A stretch of DNA of 64,000 nucleotides. It comes from a phage. The position numbers were made by a program, and so were the translations under genes. The first letter of the stretch is position 1. The number at the start of each line of letters is the position of its first letter. Of this stretch, positions 11,400 through 55,143 are shown piece by piece. Location: the NCBI GenBank assembly GCA_020241865.1, contig GCA_020241865.1_4709.1. One strand, 5' to 3'. Under the pieces are notes generated by a model. It was given only the letters and a program-made list of their open reading frames with translations. It did no database searches and was not told the DNA's origin.

Positions 11400-13622
11400 T
11401 CAGTTAGTCTGAACAGGCAGCTTGATGTTTTCAGTGTAGACCTTACGCAGGTTCACAACGTTAATCAGACCCAGCAGCGGGCAGTTGTTAACGAAGCGGC
11501 AGCGCGGCTGAACCATGGTTTCTTTAGAAACCTGACCGTTACGGGTAACCTGAGCAACAGATACCAGTTCCGGTACATACAGGAACATACCGAAGGTCAG
11601 CGGATCCGGAGAACCCTGGATACCACGAGACAGGGTCACGAAGATCTTATCGCGCAGCATGACGTTCGGGTTATCTACAACCACGAAGTTGAAGCTTACA
11701 CCAACGGTGCGGAAATCACCATCGGTCTGCAGGAACTGCGGGATGTAGTTGTCAGTTGCTACTACGCAACGCGGTTTCTCATCAGCGTTGGAAGACAGCA
11801 GCTGCAGAGCTGGCTGATAACCAGACTCGGAGTACATGCGGTATGCCATCTCACGAATCACGTTCATGATCGCAGCAGACACTTCAGCACGACGTTCTGC
11901 AGTGGTGGTACCCTGAACAGATTTCTCCAGGTCCAGATTGATTTCTTCGAACCACGGACGGATCAGGTAACGACCGAAACCTTCGATCTGGATGTCGCCG
12001 AACTGACGGAAGCGAGAGGTCGCAACCGCTTTCAGTGCGTCTTTGTAGCTGAACAGTTTCTCAACCATCAGGTTGTCGAAACGTGCGTTAGCAGCTTGGA
12101 TCAGAACGTCCAGGTCAGCAGCGTTTTCTTCCCAATCCAGCGGACGAGGAATGGAGAACGGAGCCAGCAGGCCGATTGCGTAACGTTCTTGCTTCATGTT
12201 GAAGTCAAGGTGCTTACCGCGCTCACGACGGTTGCTGTTGTTACGGCGGATACGCAGTTCGTAACCAACCAGTTTGAAGCTCAGGTCTTCAGCCAGTTGT
12301 TTGAACTCTTCGCTCTTACGCGGTTGTTCGATGTTGTCCTGATCAACCAGGCGATACAGTTCAGCGTTAGCGCCGTTAACACGCAGACCGGCTTTCTCTA
12401 CGTTGGAAGAACCGTAAACTTCGATCGCCAGCTGAGCAGCAGATTTCGCATCGATGATGTCCTGCAGCGCTTCAGCTTTCGCGCCTTTAACGTCTTTGGT
12501 GTTCTCATCAACGAAGATGGAGTGGGTGTCGAACGCCAGGGTCATTTTGCGGAAGTCGCCTTCCAGGGATTTCTGGAAACCGTTGGTGATCAGACCAGAT
12601 ACGTCGAACGGTACGTAAGAGGTTTTGCTGTGCTTGGTAGATTTGATTTCCACCAGGATTTTGGTCAGCGTGATCTGGGCGTCCAGCGCGTCGGTGTTGT
12701 CGCTGTAACCGTTAGCCAGGATGCTATCGTCTTCAGCAATACCGATCATGTCGATCAGTTTATCAACAGCCAGGTAAGACGTTTTGTAAGTTACGCCTTT
12801 AATTTCGATGTCGCGCGGAGCAACGATAGCTTTGTCAACGAAGTACTGTGCGTTAGCATCGTCAGCACGATAGATCGGATGCAGATCGGTCACGTCGTTG
12901 GACAGAACGTCGTTGTACATGAACGCATCCAGCAGCGGACGACGTACCCAATCAGCCGGAGTACCGTCAGCGTTACGACGCAGGTGGTTGAACACCAGCG
13001 GACGACGGAAAGATACGTCGTAACCGATCTGGTTCGGAGCCAGAACGATGGTGTTGTACAGTTCGTTACCCATGCGGCTCAGACGAGAAGCCTTCACGTT
13101 GAACACAACGGAGTACGGCATCATGTCACGCAGTTCTTTCTGGTCGTAGGACAGCTGAACCAGTTCTTCAGATTCGCAACCGCAGGAATCAGCAGCCATC
13201 ATGACGAAGTTAGAGCTGTCAACTTCACGGCCAGACGGAGTGGTGCTGATGTTCATGGAACGTGCTTGTTTAGCATATTCTACCGGGTTACCATGAGCCA
13301 GCATGATCAGTGCTGCTGCACGAGCCTGCTGTGCGTTCATGGTGAACAGCTGTTCTTCAATACGCTGCTTCTCTTCCGGAGTGGTGGTTTCGAAGCCCAG
13401 CATGGACAGAACCGGTTCTTCGGCTTTACGGATGTCGCTGCTGAAGCTCTTAACATCCATTTCGTTAACCAGTTTGTCCATGGATTTGAAATCAACCTTA
13501 GAAGCAGATTCCATAGACAGGAAGGTGTTCTCCAGACCTTTGTCTGCTGGTTTGCTACCATTAGCGGTCAGGAACTGGCGAGTGGCCGCGACCTGTTGGC
13601 TAAGAAGGGTTTTATCATTCAT
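11400..13622 (-). CDS. highly expressed virion protein, candidate major capsid protein (740 aa)
   Basis: ORF track; ATG 13622 with AAAGGA upstream; strong codon bias (CTG, CGT, GGT, GAA dominate) and a 766-aa stop-free antisense frame; size fits jumbo-phage capsid proteins; no motif-level proof. Confidence 0.85.
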   Translation of the reverse strand: MNDKTLLSQQVAATRQFLTANGSKPADKGLENTFLSMESASKVDFKSMDKLVNEMDVKSFSSDIRKAEEPVLSMLGFETTTPEEKQRIEEQLFTMNAQQARAAALIMLAHGNPVEYAKQARSMNISTTPSGREVDSSNFVMMAADSCGCESEELVQLSYDQKELRDMMPYSVVFNVKASRLSRMGNELYNTIVLAPNQIGYDVSFRRPLVFNHLRRNADGTPADWVRRPLLDAFMYNDVLSNDVTDLHPIYRADDANAQYFVDKAIVAPRDIEIKGVTYKTSYLAVDKLIDMIGIAEDDSILANGYSDNTDALDAQITLTKILVEIKSTKHSKTSYVPFDVSGLITNGFQKSLEGDFRKMTLAFDTHSIFVDENTKDVKGAKAEALQDIIDAKSAAQLAIEVYGSSNVEKAGLRVNGANAELYRLVDQDNIEQPRKSEEFKQLAEDLSFKLVGYELRIRRNNSNRRERGKHLDFNMKQERYAIGLLAPFSIPRPLDWEENAADLDVLIQAANARFDNLMVEKLFSYKDALKAVATSRFRQFGDIQIEGFGRYLIRPWFEEINLDLEKSVQGTTTAERRAEVSAAIMNVIREMAYRMYSESGYQPALQLLSSNADEKPRCVVATDNYIPQFLQTDGDFRTVGVSFNFVVVDNPNVMLRDKIFVTLSRGIQGSPDPLTFGMFLYVPELVSVAQVTRNGQVSKETMVQPRCRFVNNCPLLGLINVVNLRKVYTENIKLPVQTN

Positions 13623-13771
13623 TGAAAGTATCCTTTACAGAATTAACTTATATAAGTCGGTCGATAGACCATAGCGTACACGCGTGCATGCGCCACTATA
13701 GTATCAGTAAACACTTACCGTTATTGAGGTCGTGATACAACACTAAAAATGCCGCATAACTTTTCCCTACG

Positions 13772-14392
13772 TCATAAACGACGCAGGCGATAATGGATGG
13801 AACGATTGGTGCAATATGAACGGAACAGCGGCAATTGCGCAACTTCCGCAAGACTCATATTAATTCGCAGGTGTTCAATAACGGCGCTGTAGTTATCAGC
13901 AATACGATCGCTCAATAACTCTTCTGCCAATAAAGGAAGACAATCGACAACAATCGCGATCACATCCTCATTAACATAACGCACCCGAACACTCAACGGA
14001 CGTTTGTCTGGGCTGTAAGTTGGATCCGCCAAACGACGTTCAATATCACGCGGATAGCTCGTCAGTAAATGGTAATAACCATTGTCATAACGATTGATGT
14101 ACTCACACAGCACATCAACATTCTTCTCTGGCGGCAAACCTGTTTCGTCATAGTGATACGCAAACATACCACCAAGCAGGTTGTTAAGATGAACCGCAGG
14201 GTTCGTTTGTTCGTGTTCTTTCGTGATGAAGAAAGGCACGTTCTGGGCTGCGAAATAAAAACCTACATCATTGGGCGATAGTATGCCGAAAAGACTTTTA
14301 GGGTCTAATAACACCTGTAAGTCATCACGCGCATTTCGAATAATCGCGTGTTCTACCCAATTCGGAACGACGAGATATCGGAGTTCCTTCAT
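13772..14392 (-). CDS. hypothetical protein (206 aa)
   Basis: ORF track; ATG 14392 with AGAGG upstream; divergent from 14432 gene. Confidence 0.75.
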   Translation of the reverse strand: MKELRYLVVPNWVEHAIIRNARDDLQVLLDPKSLFGILSPNDVGFYFAAQNVPFFITKEHEQTNPAVHLNNLLGGMFAYHYDETGLPPEKNVDVLCEYINRYDNGYYHLLTSYPRDIERRLADPTYSPDKRPLSVRVRYVNEDVIAIVVDCLPLLAEELLSDRIADNYSAVIEHLRINMSLAEVAQLPLFRSYCTNRSIHYRLRRL

Positions 14393-14431
14393 TATGATTA
14401 CCTCTTTGCAAGTATCGAAAGGATTGAGTCG

Positions 14432-16042
14432 ATGGACCCAAAACAGATAGCCATTAAGATTATTACGTTACTGTTTCGTAATGCACAATTGAACCATCCC
14501 GATCCCAGTACGATCGAACATGTTAAATCCGTCTTAGATAAAGTCGAACCCCCGAAAAACCATCTCGCTACAGACGTAGATAGAGAGGTTTTCAACAACC
14601 TGATGAATACCATTCATTGGATGTTGGAACAACCATTATCGGAACCTTTCGATAAACAACAGTTGTTACAAAGGATACGTTTGGATTGCCTTGAACAAAG
14701 CAATCTTTACGAGATTCTTGCCGACGGACTGTACGATATCGAAGACGACGCTCATATCAGTAAGGTCTGTTCACTCTATTACAACGAATTACGTAATCTG
14801 ATTACCCGTCGTCGTGTTTTCGAAACCTTTAGAAACACGTACATGGATATCAGTAACGGGCGACTTGGGGATAAAGAATTTTTCGATGCAATGGCGAATC
14901 TGAAATTATCGCTAGACAGTATCGAAATGGATACCGAAAATCCCGAAGAGATGTCGTGTATGATTGACGGCTTTATCGCTGACAGCGAAGACGATATCGA
15001 GAAAGTCGAACGTATGTTCGTCAAAGCGATGGAACGTAACAGTCCTGAAGGTGGATTTGTAACCGGCTGGCAAGGCTTTAATAAAATGTTGGGGTCGGTC
15101 GGTGTTTTACGTCGCGGTACCTTAGGACTGATTGGTGCAATGCAGCACCGGAACAAGTCAGGCGTGTTGTTAAAACTGTTCACACATCTGGCATTGTACA
15201 ACAAACCCCATTTCTTTTTCCCGGAGCGAGCAAAGAAAGCATTACTGATTCATTTGTCGACAGAAAACGAAGTGGAAGAAAACACGCTTCAGATATACAA
15301 GAACATGCGAGAACAGGAAACAGGCGAATATGTCGATATTCGTAAGATTGACCCTCGCGAGGCATCACGTTATGTGTTGAAGGTGTTCAACGATGCGGGT
15401 TTCTCTGTTTGTATGCGTCGTGTTGATGGGATGAGTTATAAACAACTCGCTAATCTCATCGACCATTTCGAACGCATGGGTTATGAAGTCATGGCGTTGT
15501 TCATTGACTATCTGAAAATGTTCTCATCGGAAGGGCTGGATAGAAATGGACCGACCGGCGCATGGCTCCAAGAACTCTTCAACAAAGTCCGTAACCTCTG
15601 CAGTGTTAAACGTATTTTAGGCATGACCGTACACCAGCTGTCATCCGATGCGAAGATGCGTGCACGTGATGGCAACGATGAAGAGTTTGTTGACCAAGTC
15701 GCAGGTTTAAGTTACTGGGATGGTTGTAAAGGGATTGACCGTGAGATTGACCTTGAAGTGATTGTTGATATCGTTAAGGAACCGGGCAAACGTCAAAGCT
15801 GGCAAGTCTTTGCATTAGGGAAAGACCGTCAACCGGATAACGGTTCAACGAAACCTGAAGACAAACACTTCGCAATGCCATTCCAAACCATCGGGATGCT
15901 TCCTGATGATTACGGTAAGAAAGCAGTGTATTGCCGCAAGGTTGGCGGACAACCTGTCTCCGAGGGAGGTAAAGGTCCGTGGAACAAGTTCGATGAAAAC
16001 GCAGCACCGAGTAATGAATTACAATTTGATTTAGAATTTTAA
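14432..16042 (+). CDS. DnaB-family helicase homolog candidate with atypical P-loop (537 aa)
   Basis: Track start 14348 would overlap the divergent gene; ATG 14432 has AAAGGA 8 nt upstream. Motifs by eye: GAMQHRNKSG (Walker A with Asn in place of the second Gly), KPHFFFPERAKKALLIHLS, LFIDYLKM (Walker B/H2-like), VHQLSSD (H3-like), in DnaB-like order and spacing. Confidence 0.75.
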   Translation: MDPKQIAIKIITLLFRNAQLNHPDPSTIEHVKSVLDKVEPPKNHLATDVDREVFNNLMNTIHWMLEQPLSEPFDKQQLLQRIRLDCLEQSNLYEILADGLYDIEDDAHISKVCSLYYNELRNLITRRRVFETFRNTYMDISNGRLGDKEFFDAMANLKLSLDSIEMDTENPEEMSCMIDGFIADSEDDIEKVERMFVKAMERNSPEGGFVTGWQGFNKMLGSVGVLRRGTLGLIGAMQHRNKSGVLLKLFTHLALYNKPHFFFPERAKKALLIHLSTENEVEENTLQIYKNMREQETGEYVDIRKIDPREASRYVLKVFNDAGFSVCMRRVDGMSYKQLANLIDHFERMGYEVMALFIDYLKMFSSEGLDRNGPTGAWLQELFNKVRNLCSVKRILGMTVHQLSSDAKMRARDGNDEEFVDQVAGLSYWDGCKGIDREIDLEVIVDIVKEPGKRQSWQVFALGKDRQPDNGSTKPEDKHFAMPFQTIGMLPDDYGKKAVYCRKVGGQPVSEGGKGPWNKFDENAAPSNELQFDLEF

Positions 16043-50137: not shown

Positions 50138-51889
50138 ATGAGCGAACAAGAACGAAAACCTAAGAAGAAACTGCTCGGTATTCAATGTCGACACATCAGC
50201 TATAACGAAGCGAACGATGGCAGCAAGAACGACCTCATGATCGCAAAAGAGATCATGTTCTTCGATGATAATACGCAAGCGACGAACCTTCGCTTCTTCG
50301 AGAATTACAAACGTCCGTTTTGGGTGACGGTAGAGAGTAAACGTAAGAACAAATATAAAAAGGAAAGCGAGAAGCTCTCGCATGTGCGTCGCTACGATGT
50401 CCGCCAAAGCGAACTGGTTGAAAAGATCAGCTCGGTACTTTATAAAAGACGTGCTGACGATAACACCCGTTTACAGCAGCTTGCACGGAGTCCATACCTC
50501 TATGGAACGGACGTTAGCGCCAGCTGTTATTTAAAAACCCAGTACAACACAAAATGGCCGGAATACGTCGATAAATTACCCGCTTCCATTGCCTGTTTCG
50601 ATATCGAAACCGACGTTGTCCACGGACACGGTAAGATCGTTTGTATGTCTATTACAATGGGATACAATGCGATACTTTGCTATACCAAGGACTTCGTTGG
50701 TCATATTCCGAATGCCATTGAGAAAACCCATGAGAAGATTCGATATTACCTGGCCGAACGTCTGAATACCAAAGAAGATCCCCACGCATTCGAAAAATAT
50801 CAGTACGATGTTCGAATCGTAGAAAGCCCGGCACAAGCGGTCATCCAATGCATGCAGAAGGTTCACGAATGGCAGCCGGATTATCTCCTTGGCTGGAATA
50901 TCGCGTTCGATATTCCGCGCATGCTCCAGGCACTGAACGAGGAAGGGTATCGTCCCGAGGATGTTTTCTCCGATCCCCGTATACCACCTAAATATCGTAT
51001 TGCTCGCTGGGTACCACCGAAGACCGACAAGGTATCTGCTTCAGGTCGTAAAACCAACCTTACCCTTGAGCAAACCTGGCCGATGTTTTATACGATGGCT
51101 ACGTATCAGGTTATGGATGCGATGTGTGGCTATAAGTTCGTTCGTTTAGGAAGACCGGATGAAGGACGCTATTCACTCGATGCGGTGTTAGAGCGAAATA
51201 AATGCCATACGAAATTAAAAGCTATTCCTGGTACAGAGGGGTTCACGGAGCTTGCCTGGCACGAAGAGATGCAAACGAACCATCAAATCGACTACGGCGT
51301 ATATAACCTTTGGGATAACCAGGGTATTGAGGCGTTGGACCAGAAAACAAAAGACTATTCGATGACCATCCCTATCCGTTTAGCGGCGTCGGATTTGAAA
51401 GATTTCAGTTCTAACCCTAAACGTATCTGCGATAAACTTTTCTTCGTTTATCTTAACCGTGGGGAAGTCATGGGATGTACCGCTGACGACATGACCCAGG
51501 AAGAAGATAAGTGGGTTATCTCACGAGCTGGACATATCGTCACATTACCATGCGATCTCATGGCTGACAACGGCATTCATCTCTTCTGGGATATGCCGAA
51601 CCTGAGAAGTTATATCCGTCTATTCGTTGCAGACCTTGACATTAGCAGTTCATACCCGAATGGGCAGATCCTGTTGAATCTATCCAGAGCGTGTGTTTTT
51701 CGCGAGCTCTCACGCATTGAGGGCGTCTCTGACTATCAATTCAGGAAGTTAGGTATCAACTTTATTACCGGAGGTAAAACGAACGCTGTAGACTTCTGTA
51801 GAATCGTTTATAAAGCACCATCGATGTTTGAACTTTTAGAACATTTCGATGCAACGCGTCCAAAAGAGGAAGCGCGGACCATCGAATGA
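50138..51889 (+). CDS. family-B DNA polymerase N-terminal fragment (3'-5' exonuclease domain plus motif A), 583 aa
   Basis: Motifs by eye in canonical order: Exo I CFDIETD (about residue 155), Exo II WNIAFDIP (about 258), Exo III Y-x3-D (YQVMD about 323 or YSLDAV about 345), motif-A-like DLDISSSYPNG (about 499); no motif B (K-x3-NS-x-YG) or motif C (YGDTDS) before stop. Confidence 0.8.
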   Translation: MSEQERKPKKKLLGIQCRHISYNEANDGSKNDLMIAKEIMFFDDNTQATNLRFFENYKRPFWVTVESKRKNKYKKESEKLSHVRRYDVRQSELVEKISSVLYKRRADDNTRLQQLARSPYLYGTDVSASCYLKTQYNTKWPEYVDKLPASIACFDIETDVVHGHGKIVCMSITMGYNAILCYTKDFVGHIPNAIEKTHEKIRYYLAERLNTKEDPHAFEKYQYDVRIVESPAQAVIQCMQKVHEWQPDYLLGWNIAFDIPRMLQALNEEGYRPEDVFSDPRIPPKYRIARWVPPKTDKVSASGRKTNLTLEQTWPMFYTMATYQVMDAMCGYKFVRLGRPDEGRYSLDAVLERNKCHTKLKAIPGTEGFTELAWHEEMQTNHQIDYGVYNLWDNQGIEALDQKTKDYSMTIPIRLAASDLKDFSSNPKRICDKLFFVYLNRGEVMGCTADDMTQEEDKWVISRAGHIVTLPCDLMADNGIHLFWDMPNLRSYIRLFVADLDISSSYPNGQILLNLSRACVFRELSRIEGVSDYQFRKLGINFITGGKTNAVDFCRIVYKAPSMFELLEHFDATRPKEEARTIE

Positions 51890-51936: not shown

Positions 51937-51969
51937 GCCCCTCCCCCTGGCGGAAGCCGGAGGGAGGGG
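51937..51969. terminator. GC-rich stem-loop CCCCTCCC...GGGAGGGG between convergent genes
   Basis: Imperfect inverted repeat between stop 51889 (plus) and stop 51976 (minus). Confidence 0.55.
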
Positions 51970-51975
51970 TGAGGT

Positions 51976-52461
51976 TTATGCGCGTTCGTTACCAACCGTT
52001 ACTTTGTAGTCAGCGTCGGTTAAGAAAATAGACAGGAATCCATGTTCTTTGCAAATCTTACTAAGGATGTCAGCAATGATTTCGTTGATCATCGGCTTGT
52101 TTGCAAGGGCATAGATGTACCCGGGTGTAAAAGAAAGTGCGTGATTGATCATAGGCTCATGAGAAGCCAAGATAAGGATCACGTGATGCTTCCCATCGTC
52201 GGTAACGACCGCTTGCGTAGACACGAAGAAATCAGTGAAGCAGCAGCGATCACAGGCTTTAGGTATATACAAGTCACCCAGAGCTTCGTCACGTGCTTTT
52301 ACGTGTGTTTCAGGGGTGATGCTGCTAAGTTGATCTTCAGCGAGATCCAAGACATCCTCAATCGTTTTAAGAATAGCGTTGCGGAAATCCTCACGGTAGA
52401 ATGGGATGATATCACGATCGTTCATGTAATCGCCGGATTCGATAGTAAAGTTGATGTTCAT
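51976..52461 (-). CDS. small hypothetical protein (161 aa), small-gene island
   Basis: ORF track; ATG 52461 with AGGAG upstream. Confidence 0.75.
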   Translation of the reverse strand: MNINFTIESGDYMNDRDIIPFYREDFRNAILKTIEDVLDLAEDQLSSITPETHVKARDEALGDLYIPKACDRCCFTDFFVSTQAVVTDDGKHHVILILASHEPMINHALSFTPGYIYALANKPMINEIIADILSKICKEHGFLSIFLTDADYKVTVGNERA

Positions 52462-52531
52462 TGAATGCTCCTAGTGGTTATGTCGATTGATCGATGTATT
52501 GATTTATGTTTGAAGGTGTTGTTCACCTTCG

Positions 52532-52996
52532 TTAGATATCGTCATCCGTGGTGCCGTAGGACATATGCTGAATTAATTTTCTCGGCTCGATGAAAATACG
52601 ACATGTGATAAACACATCGGGATCGTATTGCTCCACGCAACGTCCGAAGGTTTGTTTTGCGGCTTGGCGCATCGATGTTATTTCCTGATCGTTCATCGCA
52701 TTATCGAATTCGATGTTGATCGCGATTTTATCGGGAAATAAATAGATAAAGTAATCGCCGCTGATACCACCATCATCAAAGTGACGTTCATTGTAGCACT
52801 GGACGAGCTTACCTTCACGTTCTTTCTGATACCACCCAAGGATACTATTAAGACCTCTGTCCACGCATTCGAATGCTTGAGTAATAACATCCTCAACGAC
52901 GGATGCAGGCGTGGGACCATTGAATAGACGATCTAAGCGCTTTTTCATCGATTTGGTTTTCTCGTTCATGATTTCTTTTCCTGTTATAATCGGCAT
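52532..52996 (-). CDS. small hypothetical protein (154 aa), small-gene island
   Basis: ORF track; ATG 52996 lies 4 nt after the 3' arm of stem-loop 53001-53030, which supplies the only SD-like sequence (GGGGAAGGG). Confidence 0.75.
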   Translation of the reverse strand: MPIITGKEIMNEKTKSMKKRLDRLFNGPTPASVVEDVITQAFECVDRGLNSILGWYQKEREGKLVQCYNERHFDDGGISGDYFIYLFPDKIAINIEFDNAMNDQEITSMRQAAKQTFGRCVEQYDPDVFITCRIFIEPRKLIQHMSYGTTDDDI

Positions 52997-53000
52997 ACAA

Positions 53001-53030
53001 CCCTTCCCCGGCCTGATGGCTAGGGAAGGG
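53001..53030 (-). terminator. GC-rich stem-loop CCCTTCCC...GGGAAGGG (family relative) overlapping the ribosome-binding site of gene 52532-52996
   Basis: Inverted repeat between stop 53045 and start 52996. Confidence 0.55.
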
Positions 53031-53044
53031 GCTATGCTACGTTG

Positions 53045-53443
53045 TTATGCTTCGCAATCAGCTGAAGGCGTCGCGCCTTTCTTACCAGCGATACGCCAAA
53101 TCCGACACGCTGGGTAATGGTTAACCTCTAGAGAGCAAGGAATGTTATATTTCTCTTCCAGCGCATAAAGACATTTCGTTAGCTGCTCCAGCGCGTTCTC
53201 GTCGTGTCGTAACGCGTGGTGGCCTAATCGATGTTGGTCGTTCTTTATATACGCCTCGAAGAGAACATGTTGGCGATGTACGCTGACGTTTACAGCCTCG
53301 AGTATAGCTTGGTCGAGCATACGACTAAAGCACATCAACGAGTCAGATACGTTTTCTCGCTTAACCAGATCGATCATGGCGGGAATATACGAATGGTCGA
53401 TGTTATCGATGACCGCTTTAGCGACGGAATCAGCAACGTTCAT
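53045..53443 (-). CDS. small hypothetical protein (132 aa), tandem paralog of 53481-53876
   Basis: ORF track; shared motifs KAVxDNIDH, MIDxxK, EEKYNIP-SLEVN. Confidence 0.8.
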   Translation of the reverse strand: MNVADSVAKAVIDNIDHSYIPAMIDLVKRENVSDSLMCFSRMLDQAILEAVNVSVHRQHVLFEAYIKNDQHRLGHHALRHDENALEQLTKCLYALEEKYNIPCSLEVNHYPACRIWRIAGKKGATPSADCEA

Positions 53444-53480
53444 CTTTTTTAATCCCTAGTTTGTTATTGATCACGTATAT

Positions 53481-53876
53481 TTACTCTTTGACGTCAGTTG
53501 TCGTTTCGACATGCTTCTCACTACTGACGTACCAGAGCAGGTACGCTGGGAAAAGATTGACCTCTAAGCTAAATGGGATATTGTATTTCTCTTCCATTTT
53601 ACAGAGATGTTCTTTAAGTAAATTTCTCGCGTCTCTGTCACCACGAACAGAGTGCCAGTCTAGTTCTTTGTTCTCCTTTACCAGGACCTCTACGATGATA
53701 CGTTGCTCGTGAACCTCGGTTTTCACAGTGAAAAGTAAATCGCTGCTATCCAAACGGGTAAAACGAATGTATGAACCAGGTGTTTTTTCTTGTTTAATAA
53801 TATCGATCATGGTAGAAATGCGCGGATGATCGATGTTGTCGTTAACAGCTTTAACGATGGATTCTACAATGCTCAT
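53481..53876 (-). CDS. small hypothetical protein (131 aa), tandem paralog of 53045-53443
   Basis: ORF track; ATG 53876 with AAGGA upstream. Confidence 0.8.
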   Translation of the reverse strand: MSIVESIVKAVNDNIDHPRISTMIDIIKQEKTPGSYIRFTRLDSSDLLFTVKTEVHEQRIIVEVLVKENKELDWHSVRGDRDARNLLKEHLCKMEEKYNIPFSLEVNLFPAYLLWYVSSEKHVETTTDVKE

Positions 53877-53908
53877 TTTTTATCCTTAATGTTATCGATT
53901 TGGAAATA

Positions 53909-54676
53909 TTACTTATTTTTGCTTTCTTTATAGACAGTTGTTACCCACGATGGGAAAGCCGGATGGAAACAGAGCGTGAACGTAACTGTCGTATCGTATT
54001 TAAACGCACAGTTCACTAACCGGGTATCTAACGTTTTCCTTAATCCGTCATCATCGTTATCGATGATGGTCATATCTCTTAATATCCCAAGCACGTTAAC
54101 GCCATCGGGTGTCTGGGTTACGACAAGTCGTCGTAATGGCCCGCATGTATAGTCACGTACAAATCCTTTCTTCGGGTCCGATACCCTGTTTAACGCATCG
54201 TGATTTTTGATGAATTCATCGGCGATACAATAGGTTTGCTCCCTTGCTTTATCGGGATCGTATTCTGCTAATAGTTCCTTCGTGTCGAATGTTATCGCGT
54301 TATTAGCATTCGATTCAGAAGGGAAACATAAAACTAAACGAACAGGGTATTCATATTGATCTGTTCTCGTTTCGAAAGCATTAGCTAAACACGGCTTGTA
54401 TGCCTTTGCGTCGACATTGTCCAAACACGGATGCAATAATGCGTGAATAACGGCACCATCGTCAGTTAAACCGAATTCCAGAAATTGTGTTTCATCGACA
54501 TCCGTGACGGTTTTCTGAAGATACGCTTTACCGTTAACGATATCGGTATCCCACATATCGTCGTTTAACGATTCTTCAAACTTATCGAATATATGGTTTA
54601 CGAAATTGATGAGTTCATCAATACGACACTGTTGGTTGAATTCGATTAATCGTTGAACTTTATCTCTGATAGACAT
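53909..54676 (-). CDS. hypothetical protein (255 aa), small-gene island
   Basis: ORF track; ATG 54676 with AAGGAG upstream. Confidence 0.8.
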   Translation of the reverse strand: MSIRDKVQRLIEFNQQCRIDELINFVNHIFDKFEESLNDDMWDTDIVNGKAYLQKTVTDVDETQFLEFGLTDDGAVIHALLHPCLDNVDAKAYKPCLANAFETRTDQYEYPVRLVLCFPSESNANNAITFDTKELLAEYDPDKAREQTYCIADEFIKNHDALNRVSDPKKGFVRDYTCGPLRRLVVTQTPDGVNVLGILRDMTIIDNDDDGLRKTLDTRLVNCAFKYDTTVTFTLCFHPAFPSWVTTVYKESKNK

Positions 54677-54678
54677 GA

Positions 54679-55143
54679 TTACTCCTTAGTTCCTTCTTCG
54701 TTGGACGTATATTCCACATAGTGGAATTCACGGCCGTCGATAAACTTGAGTGCTACTGTAATAGGGAAATCACACGGCATAGCGGATTTCGTAAATGCGT
54801 TATCAGCAACATCAGATAACCGACGTATGGTATTCTCCCCTTTTGCTATGAATGGGAATTTAATGTTAATAAGGATACGGTGTTTGTAAATAGTAAAGAC
54901 GACAGTGCTGTCGAAATGTACCCCAGTTAAAGTCATTGTTGGGATACGTTTTACAACGGAGAAATGTGTCCCGTCAATATCGCTACTTCCCACTGACCAT
55001 TCATCGGAATTGCGTAGACTTTTCTTGAGGATATCAACGCTTTGCGTGACCACCTCAGCAACTTGTACGACGTACGTGTCTTTATGCATGTCGAAAAGTT
55101 CGTTGACGTTAGATTTGAATGAATAAACCGTTGCCATTATCAT
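54679..55143 (-). CDS. small hypothetical protein (154 aa), small-gene island
   Basis: ORF track; ATG 55143 overlaps upstream stop (ATGA); alternative ATG 55137 has better SD spacing. Confidence 0.75.
   Translation of the reverse strand: MIMATVYSFKSNVNELFDMHKDTYVVQVAEVVTQSVDILKKSLRNSDEWSVGSSDIDGTHFSVVKRIPTMTLTGVHFDSTVVFTIYKHRILINIKFPFIAKGENTIRRLSDVADNAFTKSAMPCDFPITVALKFIDGREFHYVEYTSNEEGTKE

Follow-up and report, generated by a model that had tools for sequence, protein, structure and literature searches.

A probable N-terminal subunit of a split family-B DNA polymerase in a Goslar-like jumbo phage, with motif A at a group I intron homing site

Introduction

The DNA polymerase of phiKZ-like phages was described as separate polypeptides in 2011 (PMC3201878) and again in 2021 (PMC7824862), and the name "split subunit DNA polymerase" has been used for it (PMC5105663). 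In PhiKZ, the two chains, DNAP-N and DNAP-C, form a stable 1:1 B-family polymerase, for which a preprint reports a cryo-EM structure at 2.1 Å (Basu et al., bioRxiv Oct 2026, PMC13648687). A two-piece polymerase is common to all nucleus-forming jumbo phages, and this arrangement has already been described. The split polymerase as such is thus known. Here we report on one gene of this kind, found in a 64-kb stretch of phage DNA (hereafter, the window, meaning the whole stretch analysed), and on how the catalytic motifs are distributed between its product and the partner protein.

Identity and conservation of the 583-residue protein

The gene at 50138..51889 on the plus strand starts with ATG, has no intron and encodes 583 residues. 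The window phage is closely related to Escherichia phage Goslar (Chimalliviridae), and the gene shows 96% nucleotide identity to Goslar gp068. A first-pass annotation had described it as a family-B polymerase truncated after motif A. "Truncated" is a misnomer and 583 residues is the normal length of the family, because the protein matches PHROG 3011 from end to end (profile positions 5-570 of 576, E 7.8e-178) and its homologues typically have 555-600 residues. The family is matched by 1630 cluster representatives at E values up to 0.001, the best-scoring of which mostly fall at about 555-600 residues, and about 290 jumbo-phage records in a phage genome collection carry the gene. Among the best 120 of 210 homologues, most are of similar length, and a subset of about 480-500 residues ends at the motif A site. 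Homologues in EL and phiKZ-like phages share 29-39% identity across more than 95% of the length (tblastn). An identical protein occurs in 37 blocks of public assemblies. Compared with the spliced Goslar product, there are 3 amino acid changes and 82 nucleotide changes, which indicates purifying selection on the gene.

The relationship to PolB is detectable with family profiles and not with single-sequence searches. A direct Pfam scan of the protein gave DNA_pol_B_exo1 alone, below threshold (E 0.008), and phmmer of the single sequence against the PDB gave nothing other than a spurious intein match (E 0.43). The profile of the family, in contrast, matched RB69 gp43 at E 4.7e-7 in hmmsearch and was colinear through residues 404-431. 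In hhalign, it matched T4/RB69-type gp43 with probabilities of 97.4% and 97.9%, residues 129-528 falling on gp43 90-438. An AF2 model of the protein alone has a pLDDT of 85.7, and the top 20 PDB matches of this model in Foldseek are all RB69 gp43, with E values down to 3e-13 and about 450-470 aligned columns. Very likely, the protein is the N-terminal subunit in a family-B replicase that nucleus-forming jumbo phages (Chimalliviridae, phiKZ-like) build from two polypeptides, and corresponds to PhiKZ DNAP-N.

Exonuclease motifs and motif A

All three motifs of a DEDDy 3'-5' exonuclease (DxE, Nx2-3FD and Yx3D) are present in the protein in this order and are followed by motif A, as the first-pass annotation had recognized. 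Conservation was counted in a 54-sequence family alignment, and the coordinates below are on the plus strand. Exo I is CFDIETD at residues 153-159 (50594..50614), in which the catalytic D155 and E157 are invariant (54/54); hhalign places it on the gp43 Exo I "fdievt". Exo II is WNIAFDIP at residues 253-260 (50894..50917), with W253, N254 and D258 invariant in all 54 sequences, and both hmmsearch and hhalign align it to GWNvesFDiP of gp43 in the region of D222. Exo III, YNLWD at residues 389-393 (51302..51316), is aligned to gp43 YNIIDV (Y323/D327), and its Y389 and D393 do not vary among the 54 sequences. That these motifs belong to PolB, which had been left to a proper alignment, is borne out by the colinear hhalign match at 97.9%.

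Motif A is DLDISSSYPNG at residues 499-509 (51632..51664). Its D499, D501, Y506 and P507 are invariant (54/54), and so is N514 further on. The best hhalign match is one continuous alignment that passes through motif A, in which D501-ISSS-Y506-P507 is aligned to RB69 D411-LTSL-Y416-P417. By this alignment, D501 would correspond to the metal ligand D411, Y506 to the steric gate Y416, and P507 to P417. Around this motif, VADLDISSSYPN is paired with a 12-residue stretch of gp43, and the family consensus NISKETT is paired with NISPETI. The motif A stretch alone scores 1.8 bits in hmmsearch, and its support comes from the colinearity, the invariance and the hhalign alignment. In the AF2 model of the protein alone, pLDDT falls below 50 at residues 495-515, so that the model gives no three-dimensional placement of motif A. 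Judged by the alignments, the segment is a true PolB motif A.

The protein ends 84 residues beyond D499 and 82 beyond D501, close to the 85 or so noted at first. The alignment to gp43 stops earlier, at residue 524-528, which equals gp43 434-438. The C-terminal tail of residues ~529-583 (51722..51886, plus strand) has no counterpart in RB69-type gp43, and helices are modelled in it by AF2 at 532-557, 563-573 and 576-581. This tail may contribute to the contact surface with the C-terminal subunit.

A group I intron homing site in motif A

A group I intron of 1762 nt, which carries the HNH/NUMOD1 endonuclease gp069, splits the Goslar gene between codons D499 and L500, and the predicted splice junction reads VAD|LDISS. 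In the Goslar reference annotation, gp068 has only 499 residues, and neither the intron nor exon 2 is marked. In the window, the allele is uninterrupted and has no intron, and the flanking genes are the same as in Goslar. The empty homing site lies between positions 51634 and 51635 on the plus strand, between the same two codons, and many synonymous differences are present at this site in the window allele. The group I introns insert exactly at the motif A codons, and group I introns typically target catalytic-site sequences (PMC2988022). The two alleles, with and without the intron, form a clean natural system in which intron homing into a catalytic motif can be studied. An intein or intron at the break point itself had been raised by the first-pass annotation, and none was found at the end of the reading frame; the Goslar intron sits inside motif A. 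The Rfam search of the window returned nothing, no intein domain was matched by Pfam in the protein, and the intein match in the PDB is noise.

The partner subunit with motifs B and C

Neither the 583-residue protein nor the 64-kb window contains motif B (Kx3NSxYG) or motif C (DTDS). Their reported absence from the window held in two further searches: the polymerase subunits of EL and Goslar, used together with their homologues as tblastn queries, gave nothing better than E ~0.06, and the patterns [GS]DTDS and K...NS.[YS]G had 0 matches in its six frames. A complementary fragment with both motifs is encoded in Goslar by gp244 (717 residues), which matches Pfam PF20286 divDNApol at E 1e-203 and whose gene lies about 95 kb from the counterpart of the gene studied here. 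Its motif B is KLDNNSLSG and its motif C is SDTDS. A divDNApol gene is also present on each of the three Goslar-like IMG/VR contigs with the N-terminal gene. In the phage collection, the counts by genus are identical for the two genes (Pseudomonas 81/81, Erwinia 62/62, Salmonella 24/24, and others). From Goslar, at 96% nucleotide identity, and the other Goslar-like contigs, the partner gene is expected in the window phage's own genome, outside the window.

In the partner family, R122, K126, K152, N156, G160 and S404-D-T-D-S408 are invariant in all 60 sequences. Proteins of this family have a start and a conserved N-terminal extension of their own, and in the AF2 model a long helical insert (residues ~174-395) separates motif B from motif C. 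With hhalign against one gp43 sequence, the motif C region alone was matched, with 38% probability. The fingers and motif B were placed with a 24-sequence gp43 profile and by hmmsearch against the PDB, and the family maps to RB69 438-505, 553-570 and 706-758. On yeast Pol delta (7kc0_A, 1097 residues), the match begins at chain residue 637. We take the motif A aspartate of Pol delta to be D608, and residue 637 would thus be just past motif A.

A predicted composite active site

The two proteins tile RB69-type gp43 without overlap, the N-terminal one reaching ~434-438 and the partner starting from ~438-451. By these alignments, the fission point would lie inside the palm, about 25 residues past the motif A aspartate and at RB69 gp43 434-438. 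With the fission inside the palm, the active site should therefore be composite. The N-terminal subunit would contribute the N-terminal domain of PolB, a proofreading exonuclease (3'-5', DEDDy type) and the first segment of the palm, in which motif A holds the metal-binding D501 and the steric-gate Y506. The gp244-type partner would complete the palm and bring in the fingers, with R122/K126 and the motif B residues K152/N156/G160. Motif C (D405/D407) would also come from it, together with the KxY element and the thumb. Both chains are predicted to assemble 1:1, by orthology with PhiKZ, and to build the polymerase active site jointly. In this scheme, an ancestral single gene would have been cut about 25 residues beyond the motif A aspartate, and the lineage-specific tails flanking the cut probably hold the halves together.

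We regard as likely the combined proposal that D501/Y506 of the "exonuclease" chain and motifs B and C of its partner make up a composite active site, and that the motif A codons are a recurrent group I homing site with a tract of synonymous divergence, at which intron-plus and intron-minus alleles circulate in Goslar-like E. coli phages. A composite active site of this kind would contradict the published placing of both catalytic aspartates (EL D229/D398) in the C-terminal subunit, and the alignments suggest that the 2011 assignment of the motif A aspartate to that subunit was wrong. If so, neither chain should be able to polymerise alone, which matters for expressing or engineering the enzyme. 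The PhiKZ cryo-EM structure has probably settled the question of the composite site already, which would leave little that is new.

Alternative explanations

The protein could instead be a stand-alone exonuclease, with the C-terminal protein as a complete polymerase and DLDxxxxYP as a non-catalytic vestige. Kazlauskas and Venclovas placed both active-site aspartates, EL D229 and D398, in the polymerase polypeptide and took the protein of the present type for a 3'-5' exonuclease (PMC3201878). Iyer et al. likewise describe a stand-alone exonuclease whose gene lies elsewhere (PMC7824862), and the motif A segment has low confidence in the AF2 model of the protein alone. However, the column of EL D229, earlier proposed as the motif A aspartate of the partner, holds D in just 35 of 60 sequences (P in 17, N in 5). 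Its position beyond motif B does not fit the order expected of motif A, and in the AF2 model it falls between helices. No invariant acidic residue is present upstream of the fingers in the partner family, whereas D501, Y506 and P507 are invariant in the N-terminal family and aligned to RB69 D411, Y416 and P417. The tiling of gp43, with its junction after motif A, argues in the same direction, and so does the insertion of group I introns at the motif A codons, as is typical of catalytic-site sequences (PMC2988022). An independent exonuclease is improbable on this evidence, and the N-terminal subunit of a two-chain polymerase is the preferred reading.

The first-pass annotation had left the choice between a split and a defective gene. 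Motifs B and C are indeed missing from the protein and the window, as would be expected of a functionless pseudogene or a remnant of a full-length PolB. On the other side, the same length and architecture recur across the 1630 representatives and ~290 phage genomes, the catalytic residues are invariant, few of the nucleotide changes relative to Goslar alter the protein, and the identical protein recurs in the 37 assembly blocks. The pseudogene reading is already refuted by these conservation data and retains practically no probability; the split gene stands, with its partner gp244 in Goslar and on the three IMG/VR contigs. Hardly more credible is a single-chain polymerase made by a split intein, trans-splicing or recoding. 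Split inteins and introns are known in other phage PolB genes, e.g. MIJ3, and the Goslar intron is in this very gene, but the intein match is noise, Pfam gives a weak Exo domain only and Rfam nothing in the window. Moreover, a hairpin and a convergent gene come after the normal stop of the reading frame, the partner starts independently with a conserved N-terminal extension, and a preprint reports a two-chain 1:1 complex for PhiKZ (PMC13648687). A fused "Rosetta stone" form was not seen among the 150 best of the 1630 family representatives. P0354 (894 residues), the sole long outlier, has a C-terminal extension without Pfam match or similarity to the polymerase subunit and is not a fusion. The two-chain polymerase remains the preferred reading here as well.

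Downstream region

Downstream of the gene, the stem-loop and the convergent gene of the first-pass annotation were both located. A GC-rich hairpin at 51938..51969 lies between the stop codon of the polymerase gene and a convergent reading frame at 51976..52461 (minus strand, from the ORF list). It consists of the inverted repeat CCCCTCCCCCTGGC / GCCGGAGGGAGGGG, whose 14-nt arms are 86% complementary and enclose a 4-nt loop; no strand is assigned to it. It was found by an inverted-repeat search and was not called by a simple terminator scan, as it has no T-run. The hairpin is likely a bidirectional terminator. Pfam scans of 25 large reading frames in the window detected no RNase H/clamp-like Rhc partner.

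Comparison with known systems

The name of the gene product should be N-terminal subunit of a split B-family replicase, neither truncated polymerase nor bare exonuclease. The importance of this is mainly in annotation, and the established picture of chimallivirus replication is unchanged. PhiKZ DNAP-N/DNAP-C and EL gp051 with gp021 have the same protein and the same partner family (PF20286), in which two distant genes give one polymerase. The window phage belongs to another genus (Goslarvirus-like, with an E. coli host), and nothing functional sets its enzyme apart from those of PhiKZ and EL on present evidence. The difference from the 2011 account of EL concerns motif A, which was put in the C-terminal chain there and falls in the N-terminal chain by the alignments here.

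The first-pass annotation had drawn a parallel to the split PolB genes of T4-related phages, and the two-subunit polymerase holds, but the kind of split is not the same. The 43A/43B polymerases of Aeromonas phages 44RR and 25 and Acinetobacter phage Ac42 are also PolB in two polypeptides, with the Exo motifs and motif A in the first and motifs B and C in the second, and the halves of phage 25 gp43 co-purify and are active (PMC2988022). In 44RR, 43A maps to gp43 5-511 and 43B to 521-902, and the genes are 49 nt apart. The 43A/43B split is thus between gp43 511 and 521, at the fingers tip between helices N and P, and in adjacent genes. The split of the window type, in contrast, is at ~434-438 inside the palm, with genes about 95 kb apart in Goslar and sequences highly divergent from gp43.

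RB69/T4 gp43 shares with the protein the N-terminal and exonuclease fold, Exo I-III, motif A and the NIS(K/P)ET segment. It is a single chain of about 900 residues and differs from the chimallivirus enzyme, in which a long helical insert separates motif B from motif C and additional tails are present where the chain is split. Outside phages, the archaeal PolB of Methanothermobacter thermautotrophicus is also naturally split into two gene products. Its split is further downstream, with motifs A and B in the large subunit and motif C in the small one, and arose independently in an unrelated lineage.

The polymerase ORF and its length

An ORF with an ATG start and 583 codons occupies 50138-51889 (+) of the window. 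Its translation carries Exo I (CFDIETD, residues 153-159), Exo II (WNIAFDIP, residues 253-260), Exo III (YNLWD, residues 389-393) and motif A (DLDISSSYPNG, residues 499-509), in the order read by the first-pass annotation, and the key residues are invariant in an alignment of 54 homologues of 33-66% identity (D155, E157, W253, N254, D258, Y389, D393, D499, D501, Y506, P507, N514 and E523). The stop codon indeed comes shortly after motif A, 84 residues past D499, and a GC-rich hairpin with 14-nt arms (51938-51969) lies between it and an ORF converging from the 3′ side (51976-52461), just as had been noticed. Motifs B and C were said to be missing from the window, and this also held: tblastn with the EL and Goslar polymerase subunits and their homologues detected no partner gene in the 64 kb (best E ~0.06), and a six-frame search of the window for motif B and motif C patterns found 0.

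Directly downstream, six small to medium ORFs of 131-255 aa lie at 51976-55143 (-), none with a PHROG match. Judging by their translations (MNVADSVAKAVIDNIDH... and MSIVESIVKAVNDNIDH...), the neighbors 53045-53443 and 53481-53876 (-) seem to be paralogues. The window also encodes, at 14348-16042 (+) and ~34 kb before the polymerase ORF on its upstream side, the replicative helicase typical of phiKZ-like phages, a divergent DnaB-like protein (PF20307 divDNAB, E 1.6e-120).

The ORF is 96% identical to the DNA of Goslar, a nucleus-forming jumbo phage of Escherichia, and the neighboring genes match as well. PHROG 3011 ("DNA polymerase") covers its product end to end (profile 5-570 of 576, E 7.8e-178). 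A homologue over >95% of the ORF is encoded in ~290 jumbo-phage records, and an exhaustive profile search returned 1630 cluster representatives, 612 of them with E <1e-30; the best-scoring ones are mostly ~555-600 aa long. The identical 583-aa sequence was found in 37 public-assembly blocks, contigs of 238-239 kb among them, and the 82 nucleotide differences from the Goslar gene leave only 3 amino-acid differences. Therefore, the N-terminal subunit is of normal, constrained length at 583 aa, with no truncation and no decay, and the option of a truncated gene or pseudogene raised at first is dropped. The ORF encodes a known and unremarkable protein, the N-terminal subunit of the split family B DNA polymerase (PolB) of chimalliviruses.

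Two proteins aligned to one polymerase

A Pfam scan of the ORF alone gave a weak exonuclease-domain match. The ORF family profile aligned with RB69 gp43, a single-chain PolB, in three colinear pieces (E 4.7e-7), and in the third the family consensus "rahvaDLDvsssYPngeavlNiskettv" lies opposite gp43 residues 404-431. By hhalign, ORF residues 129-528 were placed on residues 90-438 of RB69-type gp43 in a single continuous alignment (97.4% probability, E 1.4e-11; 97.9% and E 4.6e-13 with a 24-sequence gp43 profile). D501 is thereby paired with the metal ligand D411, Y506 with the steric gate Y416, and P507 with P417. The AlphaFold2 model of the ORF (pLDDT 85.7) is confident at residues 1-460, and its top PDB matches are RB69 gp43, with E down to 3e-13. 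The motif A stretch, residues 495-515, has low confidence in this model of the isolated chain, which would be consistent with its being the missing strand of a sheet in the partner.

In Goslar, both gp068, its copy of the ORF, and gp244 are labeled "DNA polymerase" in RefSeq. The second of these (717 aa, 174314-176467) is encoded ~95 kb from gp068, matches Pfam PF20286 "Divergent Family B DNA polymerase" (divDNApol) with E 1.4e-203, and contains KLDNNSLSG as motif B and SDTDS as motif C. Invariant in 60 homologues are R122, K126, K152, N156, G160, S404-D405-T406-D407-S408, K469, E471, K484, Y486, E494, K506 and G507. On RB69 gp43, residues 79-145 of the partner family profile align with 438-505 (R122/K126 paired with R482/K486), 145-162 with 553-570, which is motif B, and 480-532 with 706-758. 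Against yeast Pol delta (7kc0_A, 1097 aa), the profile match begins at chain residue 637, just after motif A, whose aspartate is D608. The AlphaFold2 model of gp244 (pLDDT 91.2) has RB69 and T4 gp43 as its best matches. Both genes occur on 3 of 3 Goslar-like IMG/VR contigs, and in the phage collection both have the same count in each genus (e.g., Pseudomonas 81/81, Erwinia 62/62, Salmonella 24/24, Vibrio 23/23).

On Goslar-like contigs, the gene directly upstream of divDNApol encodes a small SH3-fold protein (PF20287 SH3DP; 5290-5703 in L012 and L013), with the genes for chimallin and PhuZ tubulin close by. These surroundings match the conserved neighborhood described by Iyer et al. (2021).

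A probable composite active site

Aligned to RB69 gp43, a check proposed at the outset, the N-terminal protein covers the chain up to ~434-438 and the C-terminal protein from ~438-451 on, without overlap. Together, the two proteins tile one ancestral PolB, and the cut lies within the palm, ~25 residues past the motif A aspartate and ahead of the fingers. In 2011, the motif A aspartate of the C-terminal subunit was assigned to D229 of EL gp021, the phage EL polymerase subunit (PMC3201878). This residue (gene at 12490-14592 of the EL stretch L003) corresponds to position 221 of Goslar gp244, which follows motif B and falls between helices in the AlphaFold2 model. It is not conserved: among 60 family members, the column has 35 D, 17 P and 5 N. 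No invariant acidic residue upstream of the fingers was found in the 60-sequence alignment of the C-terminal subunit. The best-supported reading is a composite polymerase active site, to which the ORF product would contribute motif A and the partner motifs B and C. Neither chain alone should polymerize.

An exonuclease acting on its own, with motif A as a vestige, would agree with earlier views of the domains. The conservation data and the tiling of gp43 contradict this, and we regard it as very improbable. A pseudogene is excluded by conservation across the family. The halves might also be joined post-translationally or at the RNA level. Against this, no intein was detected by the Pfam scan of the ORF or the PDB search, the Rfam scan of the window found nothing, the ORF has an ordinary stop followed by a hairpin, and a two-chain complex is reported for PhiKZ (PMC13648687).

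A group I intron in motif A of the Goslar copy

An intein or intron at the break had also been considered; none was found in the window, and a group I intron lies inside motif A of Goslar's copy. A 1762-nt insertion is located exactly between codons D499 and L500 of gp068 (NC_048170 81187-82948; 7498-9259 of the Goslar stretch L001), and because of it gp068 is annotated as 499 aa. It is followed by a second exon of 84 codons, absent from the RefSeq annotation, so that splicing gives a protein of 583 aa. With 44.7 bits (E 1.3e-9), slightly below the gathering score of 50, the insertion is matched by RF00028, the group I intron model of Rfam, and it encodes the HNH/NUMOD1 endonuclease gp069. The window allele is intron-less at the corresponding site, 51634|51635. 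Within 120 nt around this point (51578-51697, ORF nt 1441-1560) fall 30 of the 82 allele differences, all 30 synonymous. The cluster has the appearance of a co-conversion tract or of divergence at the homing site; such divergence possibly gives resistance to the endonuclease.

The called products of several metagenomic homologues of ~480-510 aa end with "...HVAD" or "...HVADLD" (P0041, P0055, P0062, P0076, P0079, P0085, P0090, P0094 and P0096). These ends suggest that introns have repeatedly targeted the motif A codons in the family, with at least two insertion points in other chimalliviruses, in keeping with what is known of homing endonucleases, which favor catalytic-site sequences (PMC2988022). 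Such targeting would indirectly support the importance of motif A. In phiKZ-like and 201phi2-1-like Pseudomonas phages, the tblastn match to the ORF is in two pieces, and its span exceeds the coding length by ~150-400 nt, which hints at small insertions or introns there too.

Comparison with known split polymerases

Kazlauskas and Venclovas (2011) described a divergent PolB in phiKZ-like phages, with exonuclease and polymerase on separate chains (PMC3201878), Thomas et al. (2016) wrote of the "split subunit DNA polymerase" of phiKZ (PMC5105663), and Iyer et al. (2021) used the split polymerase to define group 1 of the jumbo phages (PMC7824862). According to a preprint dated 1 October 2026, DNAP-N and DNAP-C of PhiKZ associate stably in a 1:1 ratio to form the core polymerase, which was solved at 2.1 Å, is homologous to B-family polymerases and is assisted by Rhc, a clamp-like/RNase H protein (PMC13648687). 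With both genes co-occurring and a two-chain enzyme published, the first-pass hypothesis of a split PolB with its C-terminal part elsewhere was therefore right, and is already established for the chimallivirus family. What the present analysis adds is the naming of the subunits, the overlooked intron and exon of Goslar, and the argument for motif A on the N-terminal subunit.

T4-related phages, cited at first as precedent, also have a split PolB, but this enzyme family was split independently in the two cases. For Aeromonas phage 44RR, residues 5-511 of gp43 are covered by 43A (498 aa) and residues 521-902 by 43B (391 aa). The T4-like split is thus at the fingertip, whereas that of chimalliviruses is ~75 residues further upstream, within the palm. 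The 44RR genes are adjacent, 49 nt apart, whereas the chimallivirus genes are far apart. In phage 25, the two halves are active and co-purify (PMC2988022).
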